This document shows, in pieces, positions 745 through 61,565 of a DNA stretch of 64,000 nucleotides. How positions within the stretch are numbered: the first letter of the stretch is position 1; every line of letters starts with the position of its first letter. Source of the DNA: a virus; IMG/VR virus record IMGVR_UViG_3300037805_000525, positions 32,001-96,000 of that record. One strand, 5' to 3'. Below the pieces are notes generated by a model. That model searched no databases, was not told where the DNA came from, and saw only the letters and a program-made list of their open reading frames with translations. Made by a program: the position numbers and the translations under genes.

Positions 745-761
745 TTATCACACTGTGATAA
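745..761. promoter_or_regulatory. 17-bp palindrome site 1
   Basis: TTATCACA-C-TGTGATAA, intergenic. Confidence 0.9.
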
Positions 762-764
762 GCG

Positions 765-791
765 CTAACTCCTCGCACTATCTGGCATAAG
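765..791 (+). promoter_or_regulatory. putative phage promoter
   Basis: ctaa-N15-GGCATAAG. Confidence 0.65.
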
Positions 792-827
792 TATTTTAGA
801 GGCTACACACAACGTTTAGGGGGCTAC

Positions 828-1124
828 ATGCCAGGTGTGCGAAAATACGAAGTTCTTCGGCTGCTCGCCCAAAATGGTATCTGGGTGCTGGGCACGGAGA
901 AAATCGCTGACCGTGTCGAGCTACATGCTGCGTGGAATCATGCAGGCGCGGCGGCGCAGTACGTCAAGCACAACCACGCGACTGCTACGCGTTCTGGGCG
1001 TATCATCGGCATGTGCGAGTCGTTCGCCGTTCGCGCACCAGACGACAAGCGCTGGGTCCCGGTGGCGGTGCACATCGACTACGCCCCGCGCATCGTCGCC
1101 AAGCGTATGACGCGGCCCATGTAA
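828..1124 (+). CDS. hypothetical protein
   Basis: ORF with RBS aggggg downstream of promoter motif. Confidence 0.7.
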   Translation: MPGVRKYEVLRLLAQNGIWVLGTEKIADRVELHAAWNHAGAAAQYVKHNHATATRSGRIIGMCESFAVRAPDDKRWVPVAVHIDYAPRIVAKRMTRPM

Positions 1125-1266
1125 GAGATACGACGCATCGGAGAGTTGGCCCAGCACGAGCCACACATGGTGCCTCGCAGTAATAATTGGGAAGGGTGAA
1201 CATGTTCGTTCTGAAGGTTCTCCCGCCGAAATCAAGCAGCGCAATGCAGCGCGAAAGGTCGCTATC

Positions 1267-1473
1267 GTGTGTGAGCCTAAGCAACTGACTGATCTGGACT
1301 GGAAGCGTTTGAAAGAGTGTTACAGCGAGGCAATCTTCGAGTGTGCAAAGGATGGTCGGGAATATGAGGGTGAAGGGGTCATGACGTCCCTCGGTTATGT
1401 CGATCTTTGGCCTGACGGCGATGTCACGGCATTTGGTGCAGTGGTGGGATCGGCGAAAGCGCAACAAACGTGA
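1267..1473 (+). CDS. hypothetical protein (start uncertain)
   Basis: frame open from 1111; GTGA overlap with next gene. Confidence 0.5.
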   Translation: MCEPKQLTDLDWKRLKECYSEAIFECAKDGREYEGEGVMTSLGYVDLWPDGDVTAFGAVVGSAKAQQT

Positions 1474-1739
1474 AGGTGGTTCGTGACAGAAGCGTGCTGT
1501 GCAATTCACAGCACCCGAATGGTAAACCTATCCTCGCCGAGCCCGGCACATTCGTTGTCGCCCTGGCAGTCGAGGCGGAAGACCTCCTCATGGGTCGCAG
1601 CTTCGCAACCGAAGCCGAAGCTGCTGACTGCGTAAAGGCGCTGCGCGTTGGCTGGCCTGACGCCGACATTGGCATCATCACCCCAGAGAAGTGGAACGCC
1701 GCCTTCGTCGACACGCCCCAGTCGGAGATGGGTGGGTGA
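1470..1739 (+). CDS. hypothetical protein, 'WN-domain' paralog
   Basis: PGTFVV...RSF...TPEKWN pattern shared with 1761, 2392 and 7124. Confidence 0.7.
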   Translation: MKVVRDRSVLCNSQHPNGKPILAEPGTFVVALAVEAEDLLMGRSFATEAEAADCVKALRVGWPDADIGIITPEKWNAAFVDTPQSEMGG

Positions 1740-1760
1740 CATGTCACAGAAACGACCACG

Positions 1761-2048
1761 GTGGTGCAGAACGTAACTGCTCGCCGCGTTATGAGTATCC
1801 CAGCGGAGGCCGGGGAGTACGTGGTCGTGCAGTCGGTTGACACGGACATAGGGGACGGCGTCTCTGTACGCGCGCGCAGCTTCGCGAGCGCCGAGGACGC
1901 GACCACCCACCAGAAAGCCCTCGTGGCAAGTGGTGACCTCGAGGCGATCACACTGACAGCCAAAGAGTGGAATGCGCAGATGGTGGACCACCGAAGGCTG
2001 ACCAGCGAAGAGTGGGATTCCGAGCTTGGGACGGGTGAACACGGATGA
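1761..2048 (+). CDS. hypothetical protein, 'WN-domain' paralog
   Basis: AGEYVV...RSF...TAKEWN. Confidence 0.7.
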   Translation: MVQNVTARRVMSIPAEAGEYVVVQSVDTDIGDGVSVRARSFASAEDATTHQKALVASGDLEAITLTAKEWNAQMVDHRRLTSEEWDSELGTGEHG

Positions 2049-2527
2049 TTAGGGACATGAAGATGAGTAACACACACCGTGCCGTCGCTGTGGCGGTAGG
2101 GCTGATGCTCACCGCAACGATCGTCTACTGGGATGGTACTACTGGTGTCGCGGGCGACACGTACCGCCTCCGGCACGTCGTGAAGCGCGCTACGACGATG
2201 GTCACCACAGATGACACCGTGGTCAAATCTATGCAGTGCGTCTACATCGACGACCAAGCTGTGGACGCGCAATGCCTTGCGACGCTCGTCGGCCGTGCGG
2301 GGAACACCTCCGTGCGCATCACGTGCAGTCACGGCGAGTTTGAAGTTGCGTGCTGGGTGGCTGACGCCGATCCAGCCGCTGATGGGGGGACATGGTGGGG
2401 CAGATACGTAGTACCGTCCTCGCACTCGCCGCAGACGCGGCCTTCGAAGAGGACCCGTCACGCAGAAGCGCGATACTTGCGCTGGTGGAGAAGGAAAACT
2501 TTATCCGTTACCTGCGCGGACACGTGA
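2045..2527 (+). CDS. hypothetical protein with N-terminal hydrophobic segment
   Basis: ATGA overlap; AVAVAVGLMLTATIVYW; 3' end overlaps next ORF. Confidence 0.55.
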   Translation: MIRDMKMSNTHRAVAVAVGLMLTATIVYWDGTTGVAGDTYRLRHVVKRATTMVTTDDTVVKSMQCVYIDDQAVDAQCLATLVGRAGNTSVRITCSHGEFEVACWVADADPAADGGTWWGRYVVPSSHSPQTRPSKRTRHAEARYLRWWRRKTLSVTCADT

Positions 2528-3066
2528 GCCTGGGCCGCGCAATACTGAGCATGGGCGACGCGCGGTGCGCAATCATGAAAGAGCTGTACAGGCGTCGTGC
2601 CGAGCTCACGGACGCCGAGCTACCTGTCACGCCGTACACGCTCATCACAGTGCGCGAACTCGGTGAGCACGGCATGTACGCAGTGGCTATGGATGGCTCC
2701 ATCACGGATTTCCCCGTAGAAGACGCTATCGTGCACACAGGGTCGACACCCAGGACGGGACGACGCTGGTGGGAGTTCTGGAAGCGTGACGTGGTGCTCG
2801 TTGTGTGGAACGGGTGGCCGGATCGTGTGGTTGCAAACGTGAAACCACTGCGTGCGATCACGTCCGCTGGCCGCCCACTGCCCGTGTCGGAGGGTCGCTA
2901 CGTTGCGGTGTTCGATCAGGATGACGGTCGACGCGCGTACTCATTCCCGCTGCGCTCGGTAGCTGCGGCGTTCGTGGTCCGACAGGCCGAGAAGCATGGC
3001 AATTTCAACAAAGCGAATGTGCTGACCGCCGAGGGGTGGAACAGCAAGGAAGGATTGCGCAGGTGA
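2392..3066 (+). CDS. hypothetical protein with C-terminal 'WN-domain'
   Basis: EGRYVAV...YSF...TAEGWN. Confidence 0.7.
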   Translation: MVGQIRSTVLALAADAAFEEDPSRRSAILALVEKENFIRYLRGHVSLGRAILSMGDARCAIMKELYRRRAELTDAELPVTPYTLITVRELGEHGMYAVAMDGSITDFPVEDAIVHTGSTPRTGRRWWEFWKRDVVLVVWNGWPDRVVANVKPLRAITSAGRPLPVSEGRYVAVFDQDDGRRAYSFPLRSVAAAFVVRQAEKHGNFNKANVLTAEGWNSKEGLRR

Positions 3067-3512
3067 GTTACCCCAAGATGCCCGAGCCCGAGCCACACAG
3101 TAGTCCGCGTGTGCGTGCGGCGCACAACATGCTGGAGCGGGCTAAGAACGTCCTCTCGGTAGCGGAGGCTGCAGATGAACTACACGTGCAACTGCAGGAC
3201 GCCCTGGACCGGTCAGTGGCTGACTTCATCTCAAAGATCGACCGCACGAAGCTGGCGTGGCTGCGGCTGAAGTACGACGGGTTGTACTCGGTCTACGCGG
3301 CAACGAGCACGTCGTCGGACGAGTACATGCGCCGCAAGGATCGTACCGACCGCGCGGAATACGTTTACCGTCGTGAGCAGATGCGTATTGACGAACTTGG
3401 GCACCGGGCACGCGCTATGCGCGTGCAGCACACGTCTGGGACGTTGGCCGCGCGTGACGCGCTTCACCACGCACAGGAGTCTTACGCCGAGGCCTTGGAG
3501 GCTGCCATATGA
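3063..3512 (+). CDS. helical hypothetical protein, paralog of 5861..6355
   Basis: GTGA overlap start; SP..R.A / ID / VY.RE / RA.RV shared. Confidence 0.7.
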   Translation: MSYPKMPEPEPHSSPRVRAAHNMLERAKNVLSVAEAADELHVQLQDALDRSVADFISKIDRTKLAWLRLKYDGLYSVYAATSTSSDEYMRRKDRTDRAEYVYRREQMRIDELGHRARAMRVQHTSGTLAARDALHHAQESYAEALEAAI

Positions 3513-3946: not shown

Positions 3947-3972
3947 GTATCCGTAGGCGGTGAGCCGCCAAA

Positions 3973-3989
3973 TTATCACACTGTGATAA
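3973..3989. promoter_or_regulatory. 17-bp palindrome site 2
   Basis: TTATCACA-C-TGTGATAA, intergenic. Confidence 0.9.
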
Positions 3990-3993
3990 TCCG

Positions 3994-4020
3994 CAACATC
4001 GGGCACTACGCGGGCATAAG
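3994..4020 (+). promoter_or_regulatory. putative phage promoter
   Basis: caac-N15-GGCATAAG. Confidence 0.7.
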
Positions 4021-4117
4021 AGTTATAGCTGCCGAGAAGATGACGCGAATGCCGAGGTGGTACGCGGAATGCGGCGGCTTGGCCTGGACACACCTTACGA
4101 GGATACGGAGAGCTGAG

Positions 4118-4678: not shown

Positions 4679-4718
4679 AGGTCGTACGATTGCCTGCGGG
4701 TCAATACGCAGGTAGTCG

Positions 4719-4764: not shown

Positions 4765-4772
4765 CGTTACCG

Positions 4773-9979: not shown

Positions 9980-9996
9980 TTATCACAGTGTGATAA
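9980..9996. promoter_or_regulatory. 17-bp palindrome site 3
   Basis: TTATCACA-G-TGTGATAA between divergent genes. Confidence 0.9.
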
Positions 9997-13581: not shown

Positions 13582-13995
13582 CTATGGCTTGGCCGGGGCG
13601 GGTGCGGGTGCGGTGGCTTCGCGTAGCTGCTTGATCGTGGCGAGCACCTTGTACTTGAGCAGTGAGATCTTGGCCATCTCGGTGCGGCCGCCTGCGTACA
13701 TGGCGTCGGCGGTATTGAAGGGCAGCTCCACATCTGCCGAGTCAACCGGCTCAGGCAATGGCGGACCAATCTTGGCGATGCGTCGGTCCACCGACTCCAG
13801 AAGACTGAGCCCCGTGTAGAAGGAGTCGGCTCGAGTACTGCTCTCGATGAACTGCAGCGCCTCTTGTAATACTTCGTGGATCTTCTCTTGCTGCAGCTGC
13901 GTGGTCTTGGCTGCAGCAGGCACCTGGTAGGGCAGCGGTATGTTCGCTGGGCTCAGCAGGTTGTCTACGCCGAAGACAAATCGTTCATCAGGCAT
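13582..13995 (-). CDS. hypothetical protein (end of structural block)
   Basis: overlaps stop of upstream 827 aa gene. Confidence 0.75.
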   Translation of the reverse strand: MPDERFVFGVDNLLSPANIPLPYQVPAAAKTTQLQQEKIHEVLQEALQFIESSTRADSFYTGLSLLESVDRRIAKIGPPLPEPVDSADVELPFNTADAMYAGGRTEMAKISLLKYKVLATIKQLREATAPAPAPAKP

Positions 13996-16471
13996 CGTCG
14001 ATCTCCGCGATGTAGTCAGACATGAGGGACGTGCCGAGCGAAGAACTCGCCGCAGGCTCGCTGCCGTATGTACGCATTGCTGCAGCGAGCAGTGCCTCTA
14101 CGGAGTCAGTGTCTGTGAGCGACGTGGGCTCCGTCAACCCGAACACGGACCACTCGAGCGCCATGAGTTTGGTGTGTACCCAGCTCAGGTTGGCTTGGTG
14201 GAGTGCGTTGGACAGGTCAGCGAGCTCCTGGGGTGCGGCGGCACTGTAGCTGGACGACGCGCTGGCTATGCCGTCGAAGATGAGCATGAGCGTGCTGCGT
14301 ACATACGCCCAGGCATCCGGAGACACGCCGTTGAGTGGATGCTGCAGACCAGGGGCGTAGCGTTGGTCTGCTAGTAGCTTGCGAACGGTACGCAGTGTGC
14401 CGCGTAGGTAGCTGGCGGTTACCGGTGTGGTCGTGGGGCCAGCACCATAGATTGCCGCGCCTGCTTCTGCGTAGGCTGCCAGGGTGACCACGCCGCCCAT
14501 GGACGAGCGAACCTCCGCCCATCCGCCGAGGGGGCCGACTGCGTAGTCGCCGGCGCGGATACGGTAGCGAGGACCCGACGCAGTGTATGAGTAGCGGGGC
14601 TGGGTGGCGAACGCCTCGTCGGGCAGTCCGAACTCAGGCCCAGGTCCTCCCCCGGGAACAAGCTCAAAGAGTTGGTTGGAGTCGATGACAAGCTCTGTGG
14701 TCTCCAGGGCGAAGGTGATGTCTACGCTGCCGGCCACGCCCAGTACGTCCAGAGGTAGGACGATAGGGGTGAGCAGCGTGACCTGGGTGGGGTTGGCGGA
14801 GACGACCTGGTGGTACCCGTCGTATGGGGTAAGGACGTGCAGGAACGCAGCTTGTGTTCCGTCGGCTACGTCAATGAGGCTCGCACCGGCTGCGGTGATG
14901 GTGGCTGCGGCAGGCGGGCTACGGTACTGCGTGTTCTGCGTAGGGACGATGTCTAGCGCAGCCGGGTTGGTAATGGTGAGGTCGTTGAACCATACGTCAA
15001 CGCCGTAGCCCTCTACAGGCACGGTGGTGAGTAGGTCATTGAGCGTGGTGGGTGGGGTGATCCAAGTGACGCCATCTACTGCAGTGCTGAGCACGGGAGT
15101 GGTACTGCCCATGGGGATACCCATACGAGCTGCAGAGCCTGCGGTGTCGTAGGTGAACAGCAGATTGCCGCCGGTGGTGTGCACACAGTCTACCGAAGCC
15201 GTAAAGTTCGAAATCTCGGTTGCGAGTTCGGACAGGTTGTACTTCACCGGAGGGGCAAATATCACAGTGTGATAAATCGAATTACCTGCTGCGACGGTGA
15301 CTGTGTAGAAGGGTGACTCGTCGGTTACGAGGTACTTGCGGTAGCTGAAGTGGAACTGCGTGCCGACGGGCAGTTCTTGATCGGTGCCTGGCACAGTGAG
15401 GTCAGCGTAGGCAATAGTGACCTTGCCGGACGTGTAGTCGATGCCGCTAGAAATGTCGAGCGGCCAACCACTTACGCTGACTAGGTTGCCGGTTCCGTCG
15501 TCCGTTATGTGGTCGTTGGCTACGTGCAGCACCAGGGAGCCCGGTACGACATGTTCTCGCAGCGTTCGAACGTACGGACCCTTCCCGCCAGGTGCGTTTA
15601 TCGAGTGGATCCCACTAAACGGGGCAGCCAGGTCCGCACCGTAGACAGAGGTAGTGGTAGCCATCGCCCGGATGGCTGCGGGGGAGGAGATGGTCACCGT
15701 ATTTCCCGGCTCGCCCGAATACTGCAACTCTGCGGAGTCGGTACTCAGGCTGTGGAGCGGAAACGTGCTCCCTTCCATCTTGAAGGGGCCGACCGCAACC
15801 AGGTCTGTGCCCTTTGGGGCGTCTAGGTCTATGTCGACCGCGCTCTCTTCGACAACAGAGGCGGACACAGCGGCTATTGCGGACAAATCCTTGGTTGCGG
15901 TGCCGTCCGGGCGCACGTTAGCTCGTACAGCGTCGTCTACGCTCTGTACAACACGTCTGCGCGTAGCAAAGGCGACGTCTGCCGCCTCCCAGGCTGTACG
16001 AGAGCGTGTAAGCGCGTTCAGTGCAGTCTCGAACTCTACTAGTGCAAGCTGGATCGAGCGCACAGCATTTATCACAATGTGATAATCCACCTCGCTGGAC
16101 GCGGCGGTGGACGAGGCGGACAGTTCGTTGAGAGCGCGCACTGCGCCGCTGCTGCCCTGGTCAAGGTGCAGCAGCGCGTTGTCCGCGGCGTCCACGCTCT
16201 CTGTTGTCAGGGTCTGCGTAGGCGCTCTGCGGGTGGATATGAGCGTAAGGAGGTGTTCCCGCGCTGTACTGGACTTGGCGGCGAGTGTACGAAGGTATGT
16301 GCCGTAGATGGCGTAGTACCCGCATTGGTCGTACTGGAGTGTGCGTGAGCAGAGGTCTAGTGCAACCTCCAGTATCTCCGCGGCTGTCTTGCCTCGCATC
16401 GTTCCGAGATCTACGCTCGGGGACAACCCCTGAGCTAGTCCCGCGATGTAGGCCTCAGAATATCGAGGCAT
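13988..16471 (-). CDS. putative virion structural/baseplate protein
   Basis: VVPGSL...ITDDGTGNL...IDYTSGKVTI motif typical of large myophage baseplate/tail proteins. Confidence 0.65.
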   Translation of the reverse strand: MPRYSEAYIAGLAQGLSPSVDLGTMRGKTAAEILEVALDLCSRTLQYDQCGYYAIYGTYLRTLAAKSSTAREHLLTLISTRRAPTQTLTTESVDAADNALLHLDQGSSGAVRALNELSASSTAASSEVDYHIVINAVRSIQLALVEFETALNALTRSRTAWEAADVAFATRRRVVQSVDDAVRANVRPDGTATKDLSAIAAVSASVVEESAVDIDLDAPKGTDLVAVGPFKMEGSTFPLHSLSTDSAELQYSGEPGNTVTISSPAAIRAMATTTSVYGADLAAPFSGIHSINAPGGKGPYVRTLREHVVPGSLVLHVANDHITDDGTGNLVSVSGWPLDISSGIDYTSGKVTIAYADLTVPGTDQELPVGTQFHFSYRKYLVTDESPFYTVTVAAGNSIYHTVIFAPPVKYNLSELATEISNFTASVDCVHTTGGNLLFTYDTAGSAARMGIPMGSTTPVLSTAVDGVTWITPPTTLNDLLTTVPVEGYGVDVWFNDLTITNPAALDIVPTQNTQYRSPPAAATITAAGASLIDVADGTQAAFLHVLTPYDGYHQVVSANPTQVTLLTPIVLPLDVLGVAGSVDITFALETTELVIDSNQLFELVPGGGPGPEFGLPDEAFATQPRYSYTASGPRYRIRAGDYAVGPLGGWAEVRSSMGGVVTLAAYAEAGAAIYGAGPTTTPVTASYLRGTLRTVRKLLADQRYAPGLQHPLNGVSPDAWAYVRSTLMLIFDGIASASSSYSAAAPQELADLSNALHQANLSWVHTKLMALEWSVFGLTEPTSLTDTDSVEALLAAAMRTYGSEPAASSSLGTSLMSDYIAEIDDA
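15259..15275. promoter_or_regulatory. 17-bp palindrome site 4 (inside CDS)
   Basis: ATATCACA-G-TGTGATAA, encodes YHTVI. Confidence 0.85.
16069..16085. promoter_or_regulatory. 17-bp palindrome site 5 (inside CDS)
   Basis: TTATCACA-A-TGTGATAA, encodes YHIVI. Confidence 0.85.
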
Positions 16472-21637: not shown

Positions 21638-21654
21638 ATATCACAGTGTGATAA
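21638..21654. promoter_or_regulatory. 17-bp palindrome site 6
   Basis: ATATCACA-G-TGTGATAA with gcgga/tccgc flanks. Confidence 0.9.
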
Positions 21655-26157: not shown

Positions 26158-26174
26158 ATATCACAGTGTGATAA
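26158..26174. promoter_or_regulatory. 17-bp palindrome site 7
   Basis: ATATCACA-G-TGTGATAA. Confidence 0.9.
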
Positions 26175-30074: not shown

Positions 30075-30091
30075 TTATCACAGTGTGATAT
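30075..30091. promoter_or_regulatory. 17-bp palindrome site 8
   Basis: TTATCACA-G-TGTGATAT, intergenic. Confidence 0.9.
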
Positions 30092-34760: not shown

Positions 34761-34777
34761 TTATCACAGCGTGATAA
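34761..34777. promoter_or_regulatory. 17-bp palindrome site 9
   Basis: TTATCACA-G-CGTGATAA between convergent genes. Confidence 0.85.
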
Positions 34778-43495: not shown

Positions 43496-43885
43496 CTAGC
43501 TCTTTCGGCGCTTCTTACGTGAACTGCCTCGGAGGACGATTGGTCCTTGAGCAAACACGTCGTTCAGGAACTTCTCGGCGTCGGCAACCTTCTTCTTCTC
43601 GAAGTCTCCGGACCCAGGAATGTAGTCCTCTCGAAGTACGGCACGGATACTGTTCACGTACTCTGTCGAGGATTCCGAGGTCACTAGGTTGCTTATCACG
43701 CTGTGATATTCGGTGCGCTGCTTCCGGTTAAAGATGTGAATCCAAATCAACTCAGCCAGCGAATCCCTCGCTGGGACTGGCAGCGCACCTGACCGAATCA
43801 GCTCGTAGTAGAGGCAACCACGCGCCCACCCGATTGGATCACTTAGCTCATTTTTACGGTGCCGTGCATGACACCCGACTTCCAC
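43496..43885 (-). CDS. putative tail assembly chaperone (downstream part)
   Basis: overlaps 3' end of 43843..44622 in another frame. Confidence 0.45.
   Translation of the reverse strand: MEVGCHARHRKNELSDPIGWARGCLYYELIRSGALPVPARDSLAELIWIHIFNRKQRTEYHSVISNLVTSESSTEYVNSIRAVLREDYIPGSGDFEKKKVADAEKFLNDVFAQGPIVLRGSSRKKRRKS
43693..43709. promoter_or_regulatory. 17-bp palindrome site 11 (inside CDS)
   Basis: TTATCACG-C-TGTGATAT, encodes YHSVI. Confidence 0.8.
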
Positions 43886-45702: not shown

Positions 45703-46135
45703 GCAAGGGCCTCGTGTGCGTGTACATGTGCGCACCACGTGCCCACGTGGTGCGCGCACGCGCTCCCACCCGCATTAAACACCCCACAAAACCCCTAAAG
45801 GGTTTTTGGGTGTGTTTACTTTTATTGGCGTAGTTTGGCTAGGTAACTTGGGCACAAACCTACTATCCCGAAAAGATGTGGGTAGACTGGCCTACCGAAT
45901 GCCTGGGCGGACGCATCGGCGCGTGGATGTATCGGCGTGTGTGGATGCATCCACACACGGGTGCATCCACGCCCGCACGAGGGAAACTCCTCGCAGGGGC
46001 CTTCCGCTTGCGCTTGCGCGCACTTAGCACGTGCCCCTATTTGCGGTGCAAATAGGAACCCGCGCTTCTTTTTTTTCTAGTCGGCTTCGCCTCCAAGACA
46101 CCCGGCTGAAGCCCCGGAAACACAGGGATTTTTTA
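45703..46135. other. palindrome-dense non-coding region (origin or RNA candidate)
   Basis: perfect 24-bp palindrome at 45936-45959, four ggRyGyATC-like repeats, several further hairpins, AT-rich patches. Confidence 0.5.
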
Positions 46136-47269
46136 ATGCGAAAGATAGGCATTGTCGACGACCTGCTCAACAAGTGGCCAGAGCTGCACGCCACACTCAC
46201 GCAGACCCTATCGAACCTGGAGGGGCAGACTGCGATGTTCGATCTACTGCTATCCGCTCCCCAGGATATCGTGCTCCTGCCGGACAGTGAGCAGGGCGTG
46301 TTTTTCCAGGCGCGGCAGAAGCTGATCGGCGGCGTTGAGGACGGCCTTCGGATGTTCTTTTACGCCGATGGGACGTTCATAGACGACGCGTCGGAGGCGA
46401 AGTACGCGGTGCAGCAGGGGTGGGTCTACAGGTACTACCCAGTCGAAGGGGACCGCATCCTGGTCGAGGTTCCGTACCGCGAAATCGACAGCGATCTGGC
46501 GCGGCACTTCTTCTATGGCCTGGCCTCGCTGAACGTGCAGGAGGGGCGAGGGGCGTACCACAAGCGTGTTACGTCAGTTCGGTACGCAGTGCACAAGGTG
46601 ACGCTCAGTATGTCGGACTTCAAGGAGTTCGCTAACCGGTGCGACGAACACCAATGGGACGTAGAGGATTTCGACGACGTCAAGGAGATCGTCGGGCAGG
46701 AGCTCGCTCACGCAGAGGCCGCAGTGGCACGGGCGGCGGACCACTTGGAGGACTTCAGGCGGATCGTCTCAGACGGTGCGGCCATGTCCGCGATACACAA
46801 CGAGGCGTTCAAGGTTGTGAACGTTCGGTCGGCCATGACCTCAGCGATGGCACACGCAAACGCACGAATCCGATCGCTCCCTGCTGGAGGGTTGCGGGCG
46901 CAGTACCAGCGCCAGATGGACGTGCTCAGTGAACGTGCGGCAGGTATTAAGGAGGTTAACCTGACGGCGATCGCTACGTCTGCGGTCGTCGACCCAACAG
47001 CGCGGGCGGCCTCTCTGTACGCACCGCTGAAAGATGAGCTGGCCAGGCTCGCGCGTGCGTACCCGGTGCTGCGCGCGCTCACCGTCCACGAGGACGATCA
47101 CATAGAGGTTCGCAGCGCCACCGGGTCGGTGCACCTCAACGGAGACGGTTCGTCGAGGATCACGGGCACCTTGACGGACAACGTTAGGACGAGTACTAAG
47201 GCCCGCGCAACACGCATGCAAGGCATACGTGCGCAGCGCAAGAAGCGGCTCGAAGCCGCCAAAGACTAA
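46136..47269 (+). CDS. hypothetical protein with coiled-coil C-terminal half
   Basis: ATG at 46136 in ORF 46031..47269. Confidence 0.7.
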   Translation: MRKIGIVDDLLNKWPELHATLTQTLSNLEGQTAMFDLLLSAPQDIVLLPDSEQGVFFQARQKLIGGVEDGLRMFFYADGTFIDDASEAKYAVQQGWVYRYYPVEGDRILVEVPYREIDSDLARHFFYGLASLNVQEGRGAYHKRVTSVRYAVHKVTLSMSDFKEFANRCDEHQWDVEDFDDVKEIVGQELAHAEAAVARAADHLEDFRRIVSDGAAMSAIHNEAFKVVNVRSAMTSAMAHANARIRSLPAGGLRAQYQRQMDVLSERAAGIKEVNLTAIATSAVVDPTARAASLYAPLKDELARLARAYPVLRALTVHEDDHIEVRSATGSVHLNGDGSSRITGTLTDNVRTSTKARATRMQGIRAQRKKRLEAAKD

Positions 47270-47286
47270 GCCCCCCTCTGCCGGAA

Positions 47287-47303
47287 ATATCACACTGTGA
47301 TAT
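47287..47303. promoter_or_regulatory. 17-bp palindrome site 12 (extends to a 27-bp palindrome, 47282-47308)
   Basis: cggaaATATCACA-C-TGTGATATttccg immediately upstream of the ParB promoter. Confidence 0.9.
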
Positions 47304-47308
47304 TTCCG

Positions 47309-47385: not shown

Positions 47386-48636
47386 ATGTCCGACGTTGAA
47401 ATGACGACCGAAGAAGAAGCCGCCACCGAAATCACCGAGCTTGAGATCCCGCCCGAAGAAGAGCTGCTGCTCGTTGAGCACGGCACCGAGTGGATCGCGC
47501 TGGGCGACATCGACACCGAAACCTTCGTGAACCCGCGCGGTGACGTGGGTGATTTGACCGAACTCAAGCAGTCCCTCCTTGCCTCTGGCGTGCTCGTCCC
47601 GCTGAGCGTGGTGATCATCAGCCCAACCGGCATCCTCGACGAGGACAACCAGGCGGAAGCCGTACTGCTGCTCGACGGTCAGCGCCGCCTCGCTGCGATG
47701 CGGGAGCTCCACGACGGCATCAACGAGCACAACGAGCGGGTTGCCCGCGATGGCGGCTTCGACGACCTCGACAGCACGTACCTGTTCGTGGTTGACGACG
47801 GCAAGGGCAACATGGTGCCCAACCCCGACGTGATCCCGCAGGCGTTCTCGGAGCAGTCCTGCAGCGTGAGCATCGCGCGCGCCTGGAGCGAGGAGCTCCA
47901 GAGCGAGATGCTCGTGCGCGCAGCGCTCATCAACGAGAAGCGTGAGTCGATGACCGACTACGACCGCTACTGCTACGTGTGCCGCCTGTCCGAGCTGGGC
48001 ATGCGCCAGGTCGACATCGGCAAGAAGCTCACTCGCGCACAGGCGTGGGTGTCCGGCGCGGTCAGCGTCAAGAAGAACGGCTCCAGCGTGCTGATCACCG
48101 CGATCAAGGAGGGCAAGGTCTCGCTCCGTCGTGGCTTCGAGATCGCCAAGCACAACAAGCGCGAGCAGGCTGCGCTCGTCGCAGGCAAGGCGCCGGCGAA
48201 GAAGTCGACCTTCCGCTCAAGCCGTGAGATCTACGCCGACGTCGTGGCGATGAGCAACCCCGAGGCCTACGTCGATGTTGACGAGGCGCATCGCCAGATG
48301 ATGATTCGTACGTTCCGCTACATCATGGGCGATGCGGGCGTGACGCTCGAGCAGCTGATGTACCCGCCCGAGCCCGAGAACGATGTGGCCACGTCCACGA
48401 AGTCCCTGCTCGACCTGATCCCCGAGGCACGTCGTCGGGCGCCCAAGGCGAAGGTCACGCCCAAGAAGCCCGCAACGAAGAAGGCGCCGAAGAAGGCCGC
48501 GCCGAAGAAGGCCGCACCGAAGAAGGACGCACCGAAGAAGGTCGCCCCCAAGGCGAAGGCCCCCGCCAGCACTGCCAAGCCCGCGCGCCCTCGCCGGGCC
48601 GCGCGCCCTCGCCGGACCAAGCCCGCCGCTGAGTAA
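47386..48636 (+). CDS. parB: ParB/Spo0J-family protein with histone H1-like PKKA tail
   Basis: NPR...LKQSL..GVLVPL...DGQRRLAA ParB N-domain; NEKRE; HTH MRQVDIGKKLTRAQAWVS; KKAAP repeats. Confidence 0.85.
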   Translation: MSDVEMTTEEEAATEITELEIPPEEELLLVEHGTEWIALGDIDTETFVNPRGDVGDLTELKQSLLASGVLVPLSVVIISPTGILDEDNQAEAVLLLDGQRRLAAMRELHDGINEHNERVARDGGFDDLDSTYLFVVDDGKGNMVPNPDVIPQAFSEQSCSVSIARAWSEELQSEMLVRAALINEKRESMTDYDRYCYVCRLSELGMRQVDIGKKLTRAQAWVSGAVSVKKNGSSVLITAIKEGKVSLRRGFEIAKHNKREQAALVAGKAPAKKSTFRSSREIYADVVAMSNPEAYVDVDEAHRQMMIRTFRYIMGDAGVTLEQLMYPPEPENDVATSTKSLLDLIPEARRRAPKAKVTPKKPATKKAPKKAAPKKAAPKKDAPKKVAPKAKAPASTAKPARPRRAARPRRTKPAAE

Positions 48637-48723: not shown

Positions 48724-50409
48724 ATGGACGCCAGACTCGAACTACGTAACCGCCTGCGGGCGATTCACCCACTCATCGCAATCCAAACCCTGGAAGAGGA
48801 GCGGACGATACTGGAGATCGTACGCATGCTCGAGCAGGAGGCCGCCGGACTCGAGGAGGCGCGTGCGTACGACATCTTCCAGTGGGACGTGATCAACGCA
48901 CTACGCCCTATCCAGTCGGTAACGCCCGCACTGCTTCCGGGTAAGAAGAAAGACGTGCGTCCACTACTCGATATCGTAGACCGCGCTATCTCCACTGAGT
49001 ACGCCGGACATCTGGTCATCTTTGTGAAGGACGCCTACGAGATCTTCATCGCCCCCACCACGGCGACCTCGCTGCGGCGCGTGCTCAAGACAATGGTCAA
49101 CCGTGACCCCGAGCGAAAGCTGTACCTCACGGTCATCCTGCTGGACCACACGATGCCAGCGCACCCGACACTTGAAGAGGACATGGTCGCGATCGAGTGG
49201 CCGTTGCCCACACGTGAGGAGCTCGGTGAGTGCTTCTCATCGGAGGCGCTACTCTCGCTGGTTGGCGACGAGCTGCGTGAAGGCCTCGCGTTTTTCGATG
49301 ACGATGTCAAGGCGGGCAGCGAGTGCGAATCTGCGCTGGAGCACATTCAGAACCTCGCGGATGCGGCGCAAGGGCTCAAGATGTCCGAGGCCAAGCACGC
49401 GTTCGTGCTGGCGTTCGGGTCGGAGGCGGACCTCGGCGGTGTGTCCCCGCGGCATATCGTCAAGGCGAAGGAGCAGCTGATTGGCCGCAGTGGTCTTCTG
49501 ACGTTCCACCAGCCTGAGGGGACGTTGGCGGACGTTGGTGGCCTGGACCTGCTGAAGGGTTGGCTGCGCGAGCGGCGGCGCGCGTTCGGCCCGGACGCCG
49601 CAGCCTTCGGACTCCCCTCGCCAAAGGCTGTACTCCTGGTGGGCCCGCCGGGTACAGGCAAGAGCATCGTCCCGCGACTTGTAGGCGCTGAGTGGGGCAT
49701 GCCCGTTCTGCAGCTAGACATGGGGCAGCTGATGAACTCCATGCTCGGGCAGTCCGAGGCCAACTTGCGTGACGCGCTCCGAACTGCTGAGGCGGCTGCG
49801 CCGGCAATCCTGTGGTTCGACGAGATCGAGAAGGCGATAGGCACGGGTGGCGACCGAGACGGCGGCACCAGCGGACGAATACTTGCTACCTGGCTCACCT
49901 GGATGGCCGAGAAGGAGGCGCCGGTGTTTGTCATCGCGAGCGCCAACGACCCCTTGAAGCTCCCCGCGGAGGTGACCCGCGTCGGCCGATTTGATCGGAC
50001 GTTCTACGTTGGGTTCCCGAATACGAAGGAGCGCGCAGAGATTTTCGCAGTACACTTGCGAAAACGTGGCCGGGACCCGGACGACTTCAACCTGCAGCTT
50101 CTGGCAAGCCGCTCTGACGGATTCAGCGGCGCTGAGATTGAGGGCGCTATTATTGGCGCGCTCTTCAAAGCGTTTGACCGGAATGCGCCCGACGTGGAAA
50201 TGGTCGACCTACTTGACGAGTGCGCGGGACTTACCCCACTGAGCGTGTCAAACGCGGAACAGCTCAGGCCTATGATCGAGTGGGCGGAGAGCAACGCGAA
50301 GCACGCAAGTGTCCACGACACACCGGCTACAGTGGCGTCCGGTGGGCGCGGTCGTAGCCGCGTTGTCTCGCGCCGAAACCGGCTGGCGATGAACAAAAAG
50401 ATCGGCTAG
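48724..50409 (+). CDS. Ycf46-like AAA+ ATPase
   Basis: VGGLDLLKGWL, Walker A GPPGTGKS, Walker B ILWFDEIEKA, GRFD; inactive N-terminal AAA domain. Confidence 0.9.
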   Translation: MDARLELRNRLRAIHPLIAIQTLEEERTILEIVRMLEQEAAGLEEARAYDIFQWDVINALRPIQSVTPALLPGKKKDVRPLLDIVDRAISTEYAGHLVIFVKDAYEIFIAPTTATSLRRVLKTMVNRDPERKLYLTVILLDHTMPAHPTLEEDMVAIEWPLPTREELGECFSSEALLSLVGDELREGLAFFDDDVKAGSECESALEHIQNLADAAQGLKMSEAKHAFVLAFGSEADLGGVSPRHIVKAKEQLIGRSGLLTFHQPEGTLADVGGLDLLKGWLRERRRAFGPDAAAFGLPSPKAVLLVGPPGTGKSIVPRLVGAEWGMPVLQLDMGQLMNSMLGQSEANLRDALRTAEAAAPAILWFDEIEKAIGTGGDRDGGTSGRILATWLTWMAEKEAPVFVIASANDPLKLPAEVTRVGRFDRTFYVGFPNTKERAEIFAVHLRKRGRDPDDFNLQLLASRSDGFSGAEIEGAIIGALFKAFDRNAPDVEMVDLLDECAGLTPLSVSNAEQLRPMIEWAESNAKHASVHDTPATVASGGRGRSRVVSRRNRLAMNKKIG

Positions 50410-50411
50410 CA

Positions 50412-51329: not shown

Positions 51330-51441
51330 GCGCTTCGCCAACCACATGATCGGTACTACGGGCCACATCGTGGACGAGACGCTCAAGCCCGAGTTCTACT
51401 TGGCTGAGGAAGAGGACGTCACGCAGGGCACGCTGGTATGA
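51241..51441 (+). CDS. DUF2997-like small protein
   Basis: ITITKAGDV...SGQSC...LKPEFY; adjacent to Ycf46-like AAA. Confidence 0.75.
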   Translation: MKFRITITKAGDVKQDIENVSGQSCQGEGERFANHMIGTTGHIVDETLKPEFYLAEEEDVTQGTLV

Positions 51442-52019
51442 CACCGGGCCCTAGCATCGCCGAGGTCAACGTCCCGGCGGCAGGTGCGCTCGGCGAGGGC
51501 GTGATCGCGACGGTACATTTTGACGGCTGCACCCTCGCGTGCGCTGGGTGCTGGAATAAACACCTTTGGCCGCACAAGGCGTGCGACGAGTCCCTGGGGT
51601 CTGTCGCTAAGGCCGTGGCTGCGAAGCTGGCTTGTACACGCCTTGACGGCATTGTATGGAGCGGTGGTGAGCCTCTCCAGTACCCCCACTTCCCAGCATT
51701 CTGCCAGCAGGTGCTAATCGAGCTCAACCGGCCTAAGGTGTGGACGTTTCTGTACACGGGCTACGCGGGCTGCGAGCTGCCGCGCATCCGCTTCAGCGAC
51801 TCTGTCCTGCGGATGTGTGGTGTGGACGGGCTGTGTGGCGGGAGGTACAACCCAGAGAAGGTAGAAGGCGCACGCTGGCCAGCAACTTCAACGAACCAGG
51901 AGGTTGTGTGGCTCACCGACAGAGCGCGTGGGAAGCTGCGCAAGACCTCAGTGACCCGCATCACCGCAGCCACAACAACACAGCTCGGGGCTGACGGCCC
52001 CCTGACGGAGGTACTATGA
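51438..52019 (+). CDS. radical SAM / NrdG-like activase
   Basis: GCTLACAGCWN (CxxxCxxC), SGGEPLQ, YTGY, STNQ. Confidence 0.85.
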   Translation: MTPGPSIAEVNVPAAGALGEGVIATVHFDGCTLACAGCWNKHLWPHKACDESLGSVAKAVAAKLACTRLDGIVWSGGEPLQYPHFPAFCQQVLIELNRPKVWTFLYTGYAGCELPRIRFSDSVLRMCGVDGLCGGRYNPEKVEGARWPATSTNQEVVWLTDRARGKLRKTSVTRITAATTTQLGADGPLTEVL

Positions 52020-52516: not shown

Positions 52517-52533
52517 TTATCACACTGTGATAA
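52517..52533. promoter_or_regulatory. 17-bp palindrome site 13
   Basis: TTATCACA-C-TGTGATAA. Confidence 0.9.
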
Positions 52534-58600: not shown

Positions 58601-59913
58601 GCCGCTGTGTCCGCAATCCCGACCTTCACGCAGCCGAGCACTCCAGCGCCGACCGTGAGGCCCTGCCCGAAGTTGACTGGGTCGGACCCATTGTTCAGGT
58701 AGAACGAGCGCGCGGGCGCGTCGTCCATGAAGTGCGTGCCCGCCGCGTCAGCGTGGTACGTGACCGAGACGGCCATGTGCAGTGCCTGGTCGAGCCCAGT
58801 CGCCGTAGCGATCGCGGTGGCGAGGTCCTCGAAGTACGGGCCAGAGCCGTTGTTGTCACCCTTGGTGATGGTGAGCGTAGACCCCGCCCACGCCGCGGAC
58901 ACGGTCCCTGCGAGAGGGGCGCCGCCGTCGACAAACGCGACTTGCAGCGCGTTTCCGTCGTCCCCCACGTAGTTGCCAGCGGTGTTGTCATCCGCGAGGC
59001 GGCCGAGACCCTGTGCGGTGGCCGTGAGGTAGTTGTTCCCGCTGACGTCCGGGTAGACCACGGAGCCTCCGAGAAACGACTCTCCCAGAGGGATGATCAC
59101 ACTGGCGTCGTTCCCCAGGTGGAGTACACGGTTCGTGGACGGCCCAAGCTGCTGGAGCCCGTGCAGCGCCGACCGGGCGTTGCCGAGCGCTGGCGCTTCG
59201 CGGCGGTCCGTGGCCACGTTTACAACGTGCGAGGGACCGCCGATGTGCGAGTTCACGTTGATCGCGCTGTCCTTGGACAGCTGCGAGATGACCCGGTTGG
59301 ACAGGATGTACATCTCTGCGGCGTCTGCGTCGAAGACGATGTCGTCTCGGTCGGCGAGGGGCGAGGGCACGGAGTTGTACGGGATCTCCAGGTTGATGCC
59401 CTCGTACCCGTCCTTGCCGAACACCGCGTCGTCAACGTCGGCGGTGAGGTTGAGCGCGGCGTACGCGCTCACGGCGGGCGGCGGCACAGTGATCAGCTTG
59501 ATCGACGCGGACGAACCCTTTGACACGGTCTCGAGGACCAGCTTGCCGTCGGAGATCTGGGCGGTCACGCCGGACAGTGCGGCGCGGATGGTGGACAGCA
59601 CCAAGTTGTGTGCGAGTCCGACGCCGCCGATGGTGTTGGGGAAGTTCACGGCGACGGCGGGGTTACCGTTCACCGACACCAGGAGCGACGCGCCCGCGAC
59701 GAGCACAGGCTCAGCGATCGCGACCGAGGAGATCACGCGGGCTGCGGCGGTGACCAACGCGTCCACGTTCGCGGAGCCGTTGGTGTCGATGGGGGCTACG
59801 ATCTGATACAGCGCTCCGACGATGCAGGCTGGCTGCGTGGGGTCCGCGACGGTCACTTCGTCAGGTACGTTGACCTGGGTGACCAGCGTGGAGGGCCTCT
59901 GTAGTTCCGACAT
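55672..59913 (-). CDS. contractile tail sheath protein with large insertions
   Basis: N-terminal RP...Q...ACIVG; C-terminal VPGFYAAAALA...IIRHALTTD...IEVVVRVTP. Confidence 0.85.
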   Translation of the reverse strand: MSELQRPSTLVTQVNVPDEVTVADPTQPACIVGALYQIVAPIDTNGSANVDALVTAAARVISSVAIAEPVLVAGASLLVSVNGNPAVAVNFPNTIGGVGLAHNLVLSTIRAALSGVTAQISDGKLVLETVSKGSSASIKLITVPPPAVSAYAALNLTADVDDAVFGKDGYEGINLEIPYNSVPSPLADRDDIVFDADAAEMYILSNRVISQLSKDSAINVNSHIGGPSHVVNVATDRREAPALGNARSALHGLQQLGPSTNRVLHLGNDASVIIPLGESFLGGSVVYPDVSGNNYLTATAQGLGRLADDNTAGNYVGDDGNALQVAFVDGGAPLAGTVSAAWAGSTLTITKGDNNGSGPYFEDLATAIATATGLDQALHMAVSVTYHADAAGTHFMDDAPARSFYLNNGSDPVNFGQGLTVGAGVLGCVKVGIADTAAALGVEGQWLEVSVDGGEWQRFVLSGAITTVALAGLVGATASIDAVFPSHSVAAGDTGASSVDVLRIVSLGGTTRDTSIALRASNSIVFEKLFGGSYAGSESYAVAALSPVFDVNGRIHELTLSSTEINTQAAIPMEQGLVQGSTVFQLTNAKVGGAIFIPISDPALLSMVDAGALDLVISMPAPLLTDTLTVTWQGITLTALVAALNGAGAGLAKNAILDSYMMFAEATINGVSYLVLHSITDTAGQQFELTEVGTAASIFAIDNTLFDTYATNVSGVDAVITDAGTNFALRVESISNSLSNCVLPAGLSPTSYVDLTGMCLSAASSFDYQARDIQLSLQGSVAGFAATLYAVSGTTTLGVDYRRGAPNISGALHTYENYLFSGGHEALVAGDMLYDNGSVLGRIVGIEDHVVGGNTYSGAVLVLSEYSVQAGAELTSWYSRSYKLDEDSPPMAAEVVPYDAVELFVVKAGAVRDAAGFAILGALNPVYIGYKALRLDASASGSDPVLWSFNSLAEVDALFGPISPENPLAFALSIAFANNVTTNIQALGIDEVTADAPYGTYESHQRALEFLETKDAYVLAPLTTDQQIAGLYKVHVEAMSTASEHRWRTAIATFDMPTEKTPLLAFSGVATAESVGGSKYNLEFTEVGVNLALALNGLIGADGVAIVGGIGEVYSPAQGIYLDFGGDAYRYRVSALVSASTIQIDLTDAFNPGSGPGSDGNDDAFYNLGSEYLAVFPADGDTTSVNIRQGALDKTTSTGRGLICQALSDMGTGLGSRRMWALQPELLVTSYAGQDVIVPGFYAAAALAAVIASTDPEKNLTGYVLQGFSRVLGSSDVFVERGQMALAAGGGICWLIQDSTNGPVIIRHALTTDLSDADTRQPGVTRQVDFMSNLIYRIGTGFMVGKNLTGNTMDLLSLALGSLQQKYSGEGNRVQGFEIISLQASPTERGRIEVVVRVTPWDALDGIDVELQF

Positions 59914-59994
59914 GGTGTACCTCTCAAGGTGGTGCCTGCTAGGCGACGCTGTTGATAGGATACTTCATGCGGGCGGGGGCGCACAGGGCGCGAC

Positions 59995-60684
59995 TCACCT
60001 AGCGGAGTTGAGCAGTGCATCTACGTGGTACTGGAACCCATCGCGCACCTGCTCGTAGTAGCCCTCCGCGTTGTGTTCTACCGTAACCGCGTAGTGCACC
60101 GGAACGATAACTTCCACCTTGTTGAACTCCTCATTGGGCGAAGCCGGTAGAAGCCCGCGGAACGCTGATGGAGCGGTGAGCTGCATGCGTTGGGTGATTA
60201 GCTCCGCGTTTCGGGAGGCGATCTGAATGTCTGCGCGCATCGCCAGCAGGCTGTTGAGTACGTGCATCCCAATCTTCGCGCACTCGTCGGAGTTTCGGGA
60301 GGTCACGCGGAACACCAGTGACAGCGCCATACGGTCCAGCATAAGCATGGTGCCGTCCTGGCTACCAAACGAGTACTTCGCGATCTGCGAGGTGCTTAGC
60401 CCCATCATCGTCGCAGCACTCCGCATGACCGTGATGCGCGGAAGCGTACGCCCGAGCTCTTCGTCGTATTCGGCCCCCTGCCCCCCGATTAGGATCTCGC
60501 TCTCGTCGGTTTTGATGTTCCACTGGAAGCTTCCGGAGGGGCGGAAGGCGAACACGGCACGGGCCCACAAGATGCAGATGTCGACGAAGTTATCCAGCAC
60601 GTTCGCGTTATCGAGATCGCTGGGTAACCCGTGGTTCGGTGTAGCGCGTCCTGTGTCAGGCTTGCCTGGTACGATCTCGGTCAC
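59995..60684 (-). CDS. tail completion/terminator protein
   Basis: position upstream of sheath; LPRITVMRS motif. Confidence 0.55.
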   Translation of the reverse strand: MTEIVPGKPDTGRATPNHGLPSDLDNANVLDNFVDICILWARAVFAFRPSGSFQWNIKTDESEILIGGQGAEYDEELGRTLPRITVMRSAATMMGLSTSQIAKYSFGSQDGTMLMLDRMALSLVFRVTSRNSDECAKIGMHVLNSLLAMRADIQIASRNAELITQRMQLTAPSAFRGLLPASPNEEFNKVEVIVPVHYAVTVEHNAEGYYEQVRDGFQYHVDALLNSAR

Positions 60685-61565
60685 GTGGACCCCCTACGCG
60701 TGAATGCCGCGGCCAGCGTGTCCGTGTAGTTTGTTGTGCCCAGATCCTGCGGGGAAGTCATGGCACGCACAGGCGTCCCAAACCAGTCGTCCGCGTCCAC
60801 GTTGATAGGCACCTTGTACTCGATGTTACTTGTGTCCAACTGGACCACGGTAACCTCCTGGCGAACAACGAACCTGCCGAGCGCCGGGCGGTTTTGGTTG
60901 CCACCTACGAGCCAACGCTTGTTCTCCGCCTCGACCACCAGGTCCCCGTCCCGAAGTAGCGGGAAGTGCCCGAACTTCATCATCGACTGCCGGATGGGGA
61001 TTTTACCTTCAGGCTGTGTCAGCGAAACGGCGCGTGGTTCTTCAATCTGTGCGTAGACGACGACTGGGCGGTAGAACCCCAGCGCGTATCCGGTGTTGAA
61101 GCAGGATACGCAGTTCGACTTCGTACGCTTCATACGTAGCGTGTTGAAGCACTCCATGCATCGGGCACCGGAATGTCTGCGCTGGAACAGCAGGACCCGC
61201 CGCCCCTTGTACTCCCGCAGCACGACCTGCTCGGTGCGCGCGATCTCCAACGCGGGTAGTGTCGCTTCGGCCTCCAGCGAGGCCCCATTATCACAGTGTG
61301 ATAATTCGCTGAGCCCGTTCCCTCGGATCTCAATCCGGTAGAAGTAGTCGCGGTGCGTGCCGTAGCGCCCCACGCTTGTGTCGAGGAAGGTGTTCATGGA
61401 GCTCTGCAGCGGCCCGGCGATTTCGACGTAATCACTGTGCGGGTTCCGCGAGCGGAGCACATAGAACTGGAAGTCGTCGACACCGGGGTTGTAGTCGCGC
61501 AGCTCCCAACTTATGTGTAGCGACCGAACAGACATCGATCGCACGAGTACCTTTGAGAACTCCAT
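60681..61565 (-). CDS. neck / head-closure protein with Zn-finger
   Basis: FN3-like N-terminus; RCMECF...NCVSCFNTGY..GF..P. Confidence 0.6.
   Translation of the reverse strand: MEFSKVLVRSMSVRSLHISWELRDYNPGVDDFQFYVLRSRNPHSDYVEIAGPLQSSMNTFLDTSVGRYGTHRDYFYRIEIRGNGLSELSHCDNGASLEAEATLPALEIARTEQVVLREYKGRRVLLFQRRHSGARCMECFNTLRMKRTKSNCVSCFNTGYALGFYRPVVVYAQIEEPRAVSLTQPEGKIPIRQSMMKFGHFPLLRDGDLVVEAENKRWLVGGNQNRPALGRFVVRQEVTVVQLDTSNIEYKVPINVDADDWFGTPVRAMTSPQDLGTTNYTDTLAAAFTRRGST
61288..61304. promoter_or_regulatory. 17-bp palindrome site 14 (inside CDS)
   Basis: TTATCACA-G-TGTGATAA, encodes LSHCDN. Confidence 0.85.

Follow-up and report, generated by a model that had tools for sequence, protein, structure and literature searches.

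A uniform, evenly spaced palindrome

The DNA analysed here (the window) is a 64,000-nucleotide stretch from the genome of a large uncultured marine phage, bases 32001–96000 of the IMG/VR record IMGVR_UViG_3300037805_000525 (G000; 109,093 bp, 61% complete according to CheckV). It holds 14 copies of a short palindrome, one of them directly upstream of a gene for a ParB-like protein. A sequence-only reading had proposed that these palindromes form a quasi-periodic grid for protein loading. Searching for TATCACA-N-TGTGATA with up to two mismatches, we recovered all 14 copies and the gaps between them; the earlier starts are one lower than ours, since a flanking W had been counted. Shuffled sequences gave a mean of 0.08 copies and a maximum of one. 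The site is indeed AT-rich in a GC-rich genome (73% A+T in the palindrome versus 61–63% G+C in the window). Coordinates of copies are window positions unless marked as G000 or genome positions:

746–760: copy 1, centre ACT, intergenic between plus-strand genes; promoter-like GGCATAAG starts 39 nt downstream of the copy start
3974–3988: copy 2, centre ACT, intergenic between plus-strand genes; GGCATAAG starts 40 nt downstream
9981–9995: copy 3, centre AGT, between divergent genes; GGCATAAG starts 62 nt downstream on the plus strand
15260–15274: copy 4, in an 803-aa gene (13988–16399, minus strand); TAT CAC ACT GTG ATA, encoding YHTVI
16070–16084: copy 5, in the same 803-aa gene (13988–16399, minus strand); YHIVI
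21639–21653: copy 6, centre AGT, 141 nt ahead of the gene that opens a minus-strand block; a plus-strand promoter-like motif lies 35 nt to the left
26159–26173: copy 7, between convergent genes, adjoining a bidirectional terminator hairpin
30076–30090: copy 8, between two minus-strand genes, 78 nt upstream of a 1216-aa gene
34762–34776: copy 9, centre AGC, between convergent genes, 4 and 12 nt from their stop codons
39300–39314: copy 10, centre AGC, 26 nt upstream of a minus-strand gene start
43694–43708: copy 11, centre GCT, in the first 60 nt of an 84-aa open reading frame (ORF; uncertain call) or in its leader; YHSVI
47282–47308: copy 12 (motif match from 47288), perfect palindrome of 27 bp, located 83 nt ahead of the ParB-like gene; 26 nt from the 15-bp core to the GGTATAAG motif
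52518–52532: copy 13, centre ACT, intergenic between plus-strand genes, preceded by a terminator hairpin and followed after 30 nt by the next start codon
61289–61303: copy 14, in a 294-aa gene (60681–61565, minus strand); TTA TCA CAC TGT GAT AAT, encoding LSHCDN

The whole record contains 24 copies. Only one other viral contig carries many of them, the IMG/VR contig G001 (50,656 bp, nine copies), which probably continues the genome of the record, because the final 107 bases of the record recur without change as its bases 10–116. The assembly break is marked by a repeat of about 136 bp (G000 107330–107465 and 108987–109093), the second copy of which overlaps the start of G001 with 100% identity. 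Record and G001 together make up about 160 kb of a phage genome of about 180 kb, and contain 33 copies. All other loci found in a 17-mer scan of viral contigs belonged to unrelated low-GC contigs, and a megablast of 12 kb against cultured phages gave no match. Four seawater DNA runs carry the stretch at ≥99% identity and essentially without variants, which makes them uninformative on site conservation. Rfam and tRNA scans of the window found nothing.

The palindromes are strikingly alike. Both arms, TATCAC and GTGATA, are perfect in 33 of 33 copies, while the centre triplet is ACT/AGT in 25, GCT/AGC in five, ATT/AAT in two and GTT in one; AT is preferred in the flanks on either side. Matches with two or three mismatches are at or below chance (17 versus 28 expected from shuffles), so the set has no degenerate tail. 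Since the arms are perfect throughout and near-matches are no commoner than in shuffles, the palindrome set is all-or-none.

Gaps between the 33 copies have a mean of 4612 bp, a median of 4435 bp and a coefficient of variation (CV) of 0.39. Uniform placement would give a CV of about 0.94–0.96 and random choice among the 97 intergenic regions 0.87–0.92; over the whole ~160 kb, the evenness of the observed set was reached in 0 of 20,000 simulations, whatever the type of placement. Both tails of the gap distribution are depleted, with only two gaps below 2 kb and none above 8.9 kb, and 11 of the 32 gaps fall within 4152–4686 bp. Such a depletion of short and long gaps fits a distance-dependent function. 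A phase-coherent genome-wide lattice was rejected (Rayleigh test, P = 0.42–0.96). 'Quasi-periodic' is therefore apt for the gaps, which are narrowly distributed and far evener than random, but not for their phase. That is, the sites obey a narrow gap rule, not a fixed phase.

Copies between and inside genes

Genes were called with a purpose-made codon-usage caller (184 genes in G000 and G001). About 26 of the 33 copies are intergenic, and intergenic DNA makes up only 8.8% of the genome. Ten copies stand between plus-strand genes, four between minus-strand genes, eight between divergent and four between convergent genes (in the window at 26159 and 34762, in line with the sequence-only reading), and five to seven lie inside genes. 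Early-type as well as structural gene blocks contain copies, and 18 of the 26 intergenic copies are found downstream of a gene end.

Four in-gene copies had been reported for the window. Their peptides are encoded as claimed, but the copy at 43694 may belong to a leader, its ORF being only 84 aa long. In-gene copies use rare codons (TAT, 8% of Tyr; ATA, 13% of Ile; TTA, 1% of Leu; ACT and AGT, about 9–10% each), which argues for selection on the DNA and not on the peptide. They stand where intergenic sites are lacking, and their removal would leave gaps of 8.7–14.9 kb. The palindromes are real, selected double-stranded DNA elements that follow a distance rule.

Promoter-like motifs, terminators and polarity

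A second motif, GG[CT]ATAAG, has 26 intergenic copies genome-wide, all on the plus strand. They lie 25–226 nt (mostly <100 nt) before a plus-strand gene start, with the exception of one at 71380, in a minus-strand block with no plus-strand gene within 5 kb. Judged from its sequence and placement, the motif looks like a promoter of the plus-strand cassettes, and a sigma-like protein or RNA polymerase of the phage itself may read it in the form tgG[CT]ATAAG. This form is often followed by a TAG-containing element, and no counterpart was seen for minus-strand genes. In the window, G[CT]ATAAG starts at 785, 4014, 4793, 7070, 10043, 21604, 25124, 32061, 39380, 45034 and 47329.

For 16 of the 26 intergenic GG[CT]ATAAG motifs a palindrome is found 30–85 nt upstream, and two have one 35 nt downstream. 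This proximity at variable distance means that the palindrome is often near promoters but is not the promoter itself. The right half of the site, TGTGATAAT, was also considered as an extended −10 promoter; as a general explanation this was rejected, since a separate promoter-like motif lies 16–50 nt beyond and both arms are equally conserved.

Equally, the idea that most copies stand beside terminators did not survive a strict scan for hairpins with a T-run (4 of 33 copies versus 11 of 97 intergenic regions), although a TTTCTTA-type tract can be seen by eye close to about ten copies. At genome positions 7422, 14963 and 17645, outside the window, the palindrome extends to 10–11 bp and is directly followed by TTTCTTA, which gives it a terminator-like appearance; beyond the palindrome, the copies at 14963 and 17645 have a further ~16 nt of flank in common. 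The centre base of the palindrome follows gene direction in 16 of 20 co-directional contexts (two-sided binomial P ~0.01, the true significance being weaker because neighbouring sites share context).

A divergent ParB-family protein

47386–48636, plus strand: ParB/Noc/KorB-family protein, 416 aa, with an N-terminal domain of the cytidine triphosphate (CTP)-binding type, a helix-turn-helix (HTH), a helical region and a lysine-rich tail resembling histone H1

The gene next to copy 12 had been called ParB, and its product is a true member of the ParB/Noc/KorB fold by motifs, HTH, profile and structure comparison. It is a divergent member, recognised via profile and fold. As a single protein it matched PHROG ParB-like families at E 7e-8 and 7e-5, and phmmer of the single sequence against the PDB found no match, so that a family profile was needed. 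An exhaustive search of 1.84 billion proteins yielded 34 relatives, including a coherent family of about 390–440 aa with an invariant N49-x-R51, G98, R101, N183 and R186, an HTH and a lysine-rich tail. The arginine patch GxRRxxA is present as DGQRRLAA, with G98, R100, R101 (invariant or nearly so) and A104 conserved in family alignments. N49 and R51 of the N-x-R box and N183 and R186 of the ENxxR-type box are invariant in 12 family members, and in the family profile the latter box aligns with ENLQRE of Spo0J and Noc.

Against the PDB, the family profile matched Spo0J (2.5e-18), Noc (1.2e-17) and also ParB over the N-terminal domain and the HTH; profile positions 153–276 align to the HTH domains of 1vz0 and 7ol9. 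AlphaFold2 with the alignment gave a mean predicted local distance difference test score (pLDDT) of 74, and about 90 for residues 30–270, versus 34 for a single-sequence fold. The top Foldseek matches of the predicted model were KorB, Noc and ParB, at probability 1.0. An acidic, disordered stretch forms the N-terminus. In codon bias the gene ranks 8 of 184, alongside head genes, and this capsid-like bias points to abundance. The copy upstream of the gene is a perfect 13+1+13 palindrome, as had been noted, but as the most symmetric copy it is tied with a second 27-bp copy outside the window. Two other proteins named earlier as 'SAM-like' (32106) and 'RHH' (42773) found no support in Pfam or PHROG.

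No ParA (PF13614) was found in G000, G001 or the complete relative G005 (see below), while control genomes all matched. Neither an integrase (PF00589) nor an HTH_3/Cro/CI-type repressor was found in the ~160 kb, which is an incomplete genome, or in the complete relative. By Pfam, no other recognisable repressor appeared among 148 small proteins of G000 and G001, a survey that included no search aimed at KorA/TrbA. The same survey showed one protein each with Sigma-70 region 3 and a D12-class N6-adenine DNA methyltransferase domain, and one each for DHFR, dUTPase, UDG, RNase H and NUDIX. TET/JBP dioxygenases are partners of some phage ParB-like proteins (bioRxiv 10.1101/2025.08.14.668559); our search for one had no match, and control genomes gave none either, so that it is uninformative.

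A related dyad in other phages with this ParB family

The closest relatives of the protein, P0002 and P0003, were seen in Logan only; their recognition helix, too, opens with R-x-Q. A tblastn search of ParB against cultured phages and a search of viral contigs for related loci with ParB, P0002 and P0009 as queries found none. Two further lineages with this ParB family could be compared. L022, a metagenome contig of 54% G+C, has the gene order of our phage (a 407-aa gene, ParB, AAA ATPase) and carries 18 copies of the dyad GTATTAA-N3-TTAATAC in 20.7 kb (0.4 expected). One of these stands 27 nt before the GGTATAA motif of parB, versus 26 nt in our phage. A scan of viral contigs with the L022 motif gave just single chance matches in AT-rich phages. 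G005, a complete IMG/VR genome (180,106 bp, 51% G+C), encodes this ParB family beside an AAA ATPase and has 17 copies of TATTA-N5-TAATA (~0.14 expected).

Aligned on their centres, the dyads of the three lineages are variants of one dyad, TATYA-N5-TRATA. The recognition helix of ParB starts with R-x-Q where the half-site has C:G (the subclade of our phage) and with I-[ST]-Q where it has T:A (L022 and G005), a co-variation that is suggestive at the sequence level. In the G005 clade (four genomes, ParB 72–100% identical), an in-gene copy has invariant arms, and a variable spacer and flanks. Comparison of these sequences indicates that the site system is conserved in a family of large marine phages.

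The AAA ATPase by itself does not predict an array, since nearly all of 78 other phage loci with this ATPase lack dispersed palindromes. Of these loci, 77 had no match to this ParB family, and one (L042) had two weak matches (E 4e-08 and 1e-06). One locus with the ATPase and without this ParB family, L046 (IMGVR_UViG_3300017963_000025), carries a 16-bp palindrome, CCGCAAACGTTTGCGG, five times in 21 kb; these copies may be terminators.

The parB operon and other genes

45900–45980: cluster of local repeats that precedes the 377-aa gene and the parB operon; a 16-nt unit occurs four times in tandem (GGATGCATCC core), and positions 45936–45959 form a perfect palindrome of 24 bp
46136–47269, plus strand: 377-aa protein without a Pfam or PHROG match; syntenic upstream partner of parB in all three lineages
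48724–50409, plus strand: AAA+ ATPase directly downstream of parB (Pfam AAA, 2e-28; PHROG 8638, 3e-113); syntenic in relatives

The 377-aa protein is 23% identical to a 358-aa protein of G005 (E 4e-7), and homologues of the AAA ATPase occur in many phages, Cluster O mycobacteriophages included. In the operon, the ATPase is followed by a weakly RecA-like 305-aa protein and a 193-aa radical-SAM protein (51438–52019, plus strand; Fer4_12 and Radical_SAM), which is NrdG- or QueE-like. If QueE-like, it could hint at a DNA-modification pathway; no further genes of such a pathway were recognised.

The local cluster lies within a 430-nt non-coding stretch (45703–46135) that also holds several long imperfect inverted repeats and has no Rfam match. 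This stretch could be an origin, iterons, a centromere or a structured RNA, and the cluster itself is a rival candidate for a ParB site or an origin-like element. The relatives have clusters of their own: four copies of CTGTCAACAACGTTGTTGACAG in L022, and in G005 the dyads GTGACA-N10-TGTCAC upstream of the 358-aa gene and of parB, which are conserved in four genomes.

Outside the window, on G001, a 2470-aa protein (L015:1048-8460, minus strand) matches several PHROG families of phage multisubunit RNA polymerase beta type and, from these matches, looks like a fused phage RNA polymerase. Near it are a DNA polymerase, a DnaB-like helicase, a UvsX-like recombinase and a Cas4-like exonuclease.

Candidate readers of the array

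We tentatively read the palindromes as KorB/Noc-like loading sites for the phage's own orphan ParB, the candidate reader, and put the chance of this at a little under even. The palindrome would be read as double-stranded DNA by a dimer of a phage-encoded protein, most likely the ParB at 47386–48636. If it works as KorB does on RK2 and Noc on the Bacillus chromosome, dimers of ParB would recognise the dyad via their HTH domains, and CTP binding would close the dimer into a clamp, which would slide off the site. With sites about every 4.4 kb and at most ~9 kb apart, no part of the phage chromosome would be out of reach of a loading point, and the lysine-rich tail would contribute non-specific DNA contact. 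The likely consequence would be a genome-wide modulation or insulation of transcription units, perhaps coating or compaction.

We infer binding, sliding and effect of ParB from several findings. The reading is favoured because the site set is all-or-none, copies occur in every context and in-gene copies are kept against codon usage. It is also favoured because no ParA, integrase, HTH_3 or other recognisable repressor was found, and because a perfect 27-bp copy stands just upstream of the promoter-like motif of parB, with the L022 variant at the same distance.

A number of points weigh against it. The proposed loading grid stands as far as selected and evenly spaced sites, a true ParB fold and a dyad in ParB-bearing relatives are concerned, but the link between ParB and the palindrome is one of proximity and co-occurrence only, read from sequence, and the residue/base co-variation spans only two clades. 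The scan of related phages returned a homologous dyad in L022 and G005, but even spacing is not significant in the complete relative G005 (CV 0.78) or in the Cluster O phage Catdawg (CV 0.95). The protein does not reach Pfam ParB_N at E 0.01, either as a single protein or in a six-frame search. About 20 kb of the genome lie outside the ~160 kb covered. ParB sites or iterons are usually located at par-proximal clusters, and every lineage has, at its parB operon, a local cluster of other, longer dyads; if these are the ParB sites, the dispersed dyad would need another reader. A centre base that follows gene direction is not expected for a symmetric dimer, which should be indifferent to it. And an ordinary regulator would give the same pattern of palindromes 30–85 nt upstream of promoter-like motifs. 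Since about half of the plus-strand promoter-like motifs have such a copy, a transcriptional role of the palindrome, which the sequence-only reading had taken as secondary, may be the primary one.

Such a regulator is the most serious alternative, although we consider it rather unlikely. Here, the palindromes would be the dispersed operators of another, unrecognised phage transcription factor (repressor or activator), which would work at nearby promoters and form a roadblock where units adjoin, in the manner of P1 C1, phiC31 and the Cluster A stoperators, and ParB would read only the cluster at its own operon. The concentration of copies in the 8.8% of intergenic DNA, their positions up- and downstream of GG[CT]ATAAG and the agreement of site polarity with gene direction all suit this view, and the local dyad clusters would provide ParB with a separate, plausible target. 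The promoter-like motifs of the plus-strand block are themselves fairly even (CV ~0.44, arithmetic on positions), so that cassette size could partly cause the evenness, and most phage proteins here have no recognisable family, which makes a hidden regulator easy to imagine. But copies stand at varying distances from the promoter motif (16–50 nt) without helical phasing, four are found between convergent genes, five to seven are kept inside genes with rare codons, and both early-type and structural blocks carry copies. There is no gradation of affinity among the 33 copies, an integrase and a Cro/CI-type protein were not found in the ~160 kb, and an operator network leaves the absence of gaps >9 kb unexplained.

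It is improbable that the element acts as RNA, that is, as an AU-rich hairpin (UAUCACA-C-UGUGAUA) serving as terminator, processing site or protein-binding hairpin. A hairpin would account for a loop base that tracks the direction of transcription in 16 of 20 contexts; the three extended copies at genome positions 7422, 14963 and 17645 with their TTTCTTA resemble intrinsic terminators, and the 18 intergenic copies downstream of a gene end would fit. Yet eight copies stand between divergent genes, a place in which neither a terminator nor a 3' element would be meaningful, and several lie in probably little-transcribed DNA between a separate GC-rich terminator and the promoter motif that comes next. 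Terminator stems need no fixed sequence, whereas 12 of 12 arm positions are invariant here. Four co-directional copies have the opposite polarity, and polarity could have been inherited through duplicated terminator-site-promoter modules, as the flank shared by the copies at 14963 and 17645 illustrates. We give equally little credence to a host protein (a nucleoid-associated protein or global regulator) that reads the sites and is exploited by the phage for timing or DNA organisation. Phages with ParB proteins of only ~25% identity share the dyad core TATYA-N5-TRATA, which would fit a reader conserved among hosts, and AT-rich sites in GC-rich DNA draw nucleoid proteins. But differences between lineages affect the arms at fixed positions and suggest a partner that co-evolves, and the 19-mer gave only six isolated matches in 596 Gb of bacterial genomes, near chance and without regulon-like clustering. 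Two of the six are one conserved Sphingomonadales coding region and none is related to the phage; one is a single-copy perfect 35-bp palindrome, GCCATGTGATTATCACAGTGTGATAATCACATGGC (L244:617-651), on a 69% G+C contig of a Pseudonocardiaceae metagenome-assembled genome. The site could not be matched to any host-factor consensus known to us (CRP, Fur, DnaA, LexA, FNR).

Comparison with known systems

Known CTP clamps of the ParB family serve to segregate chromosomes and plasmids (ParB), to control the division site (Noc) and to silence plasmid genes (KorB). KorB has 12 OB sites in the 60 kb of RK2, about one per 5 kb, which fall into promoter-proximal, distal and intragenic classes and are as uniform as the 33 palindromes described here, whereas graded operators vary. 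KorB with OB on the IncP-1 plasmid RK2 (PMC11790492; PMC13768133; PMC13584720) shares with our phage a ParB-family CTP clamp with an HTH (CTP use being predicted here, with KorB as the top Foldseek match), one near-invariant short palindrome across a whole replicon (33 copies in ~160 kb here), a site at the protein's own operon, and sites of which some are at promoters, some distal and some in genes. It is the closest worked example (PMC11790492). The replicon here, in contrast, is a ~180-kb phage without sign of lysogeny and not a plasmid, no ParA (IncC) was found and no KorA/TrbA clamp-locking partner was recognisable. The phage protein also differs in its lysine-rich tail, and its sites in architecture (6-N3-6 or 7-N1-7 versus 6-N1-6) and in their statistically even spacing; binding is predicted here. 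Noc on the Bacillus subtilis chromosome (PDB 7ol9, 7nfu; profile E 1.2e-17) is likewise an orphan ParB paralogue without ParA that has many dispersed palindromic sites. It differs by a membrane-targeting N-terminal helix and a function in division-site selection, while the N-terminus here is acidic and disordered. A classical ParABS system differs in having a ParA, for which we found no candidate (PF13614) in G000, G001 or G005.

Among phages, the C1 operators of P1, the conserved inverted repeats of phiC31 and the stoperators of L5/Bxb1 resemble the array in that a short, mostly intergenic site occurs tens of times. These sites are each bound by one phage protein, in temperate phages whose repressor is known; both the stoperators and the C1 operators lack symmetry and vary in sequence, and we know of no report of even spacing for any of the three. 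From such classical operator networks of temperate phages our ~160 kb differ in that no integrase, HTH_3 or ParA was found. Stoperators are discussed in PMC4351075, which also describes more than 30 dispersed 17-bp dyads (7-N3-7) in the Cluster O mycobacteriophages Corndog and Catdawg, some in genes, most away from promoters and without orientation bias, and leaves their function open (2015). Like our phage, these phages combine dispersed dyads with the absence of integrase and ParA, a ParB-like protein that matches this ParB family in the N-terminal domain and HTH (E 3e-12), and a homologous AAA ATPase. Their dyad (TGTTCGG-N3-CCGAACA), host, morphology and genome size are different, and the spacing in Catdawg is random-like and denser toward one end.

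Implications for phage biology

In the literature we found no phage ParB for which an array of this kind is described. Should ParB be the reader, an evenly spaced loading array over the whole genome of a non-lysogenic-looking phage would be a new use of the ParB clamp and could help to account for the Cluster O dyad repeats that PMC4351075 left unexplained, and the even spacing predicts a reach of the bound protein of ~2 kb to either side. If another protein is the reader, the array is still among the most regular distributions of phage sites known to us. A bolder picture, which we regard as doubtful, is that a virulent large phage coats its chromosome with a ParB clamp bearing a histone-H1-like tail and loaded at evenly spaced sites, a CTP-driven 'chromatin'. 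If true, transcription units would be insulated, genes silenced or timed at a distance, or the DNA shielded and compacted. The same principle would then explain the dyad arrays of other large uncultured phages as well as those of the Cluster O mycobacteriophages.

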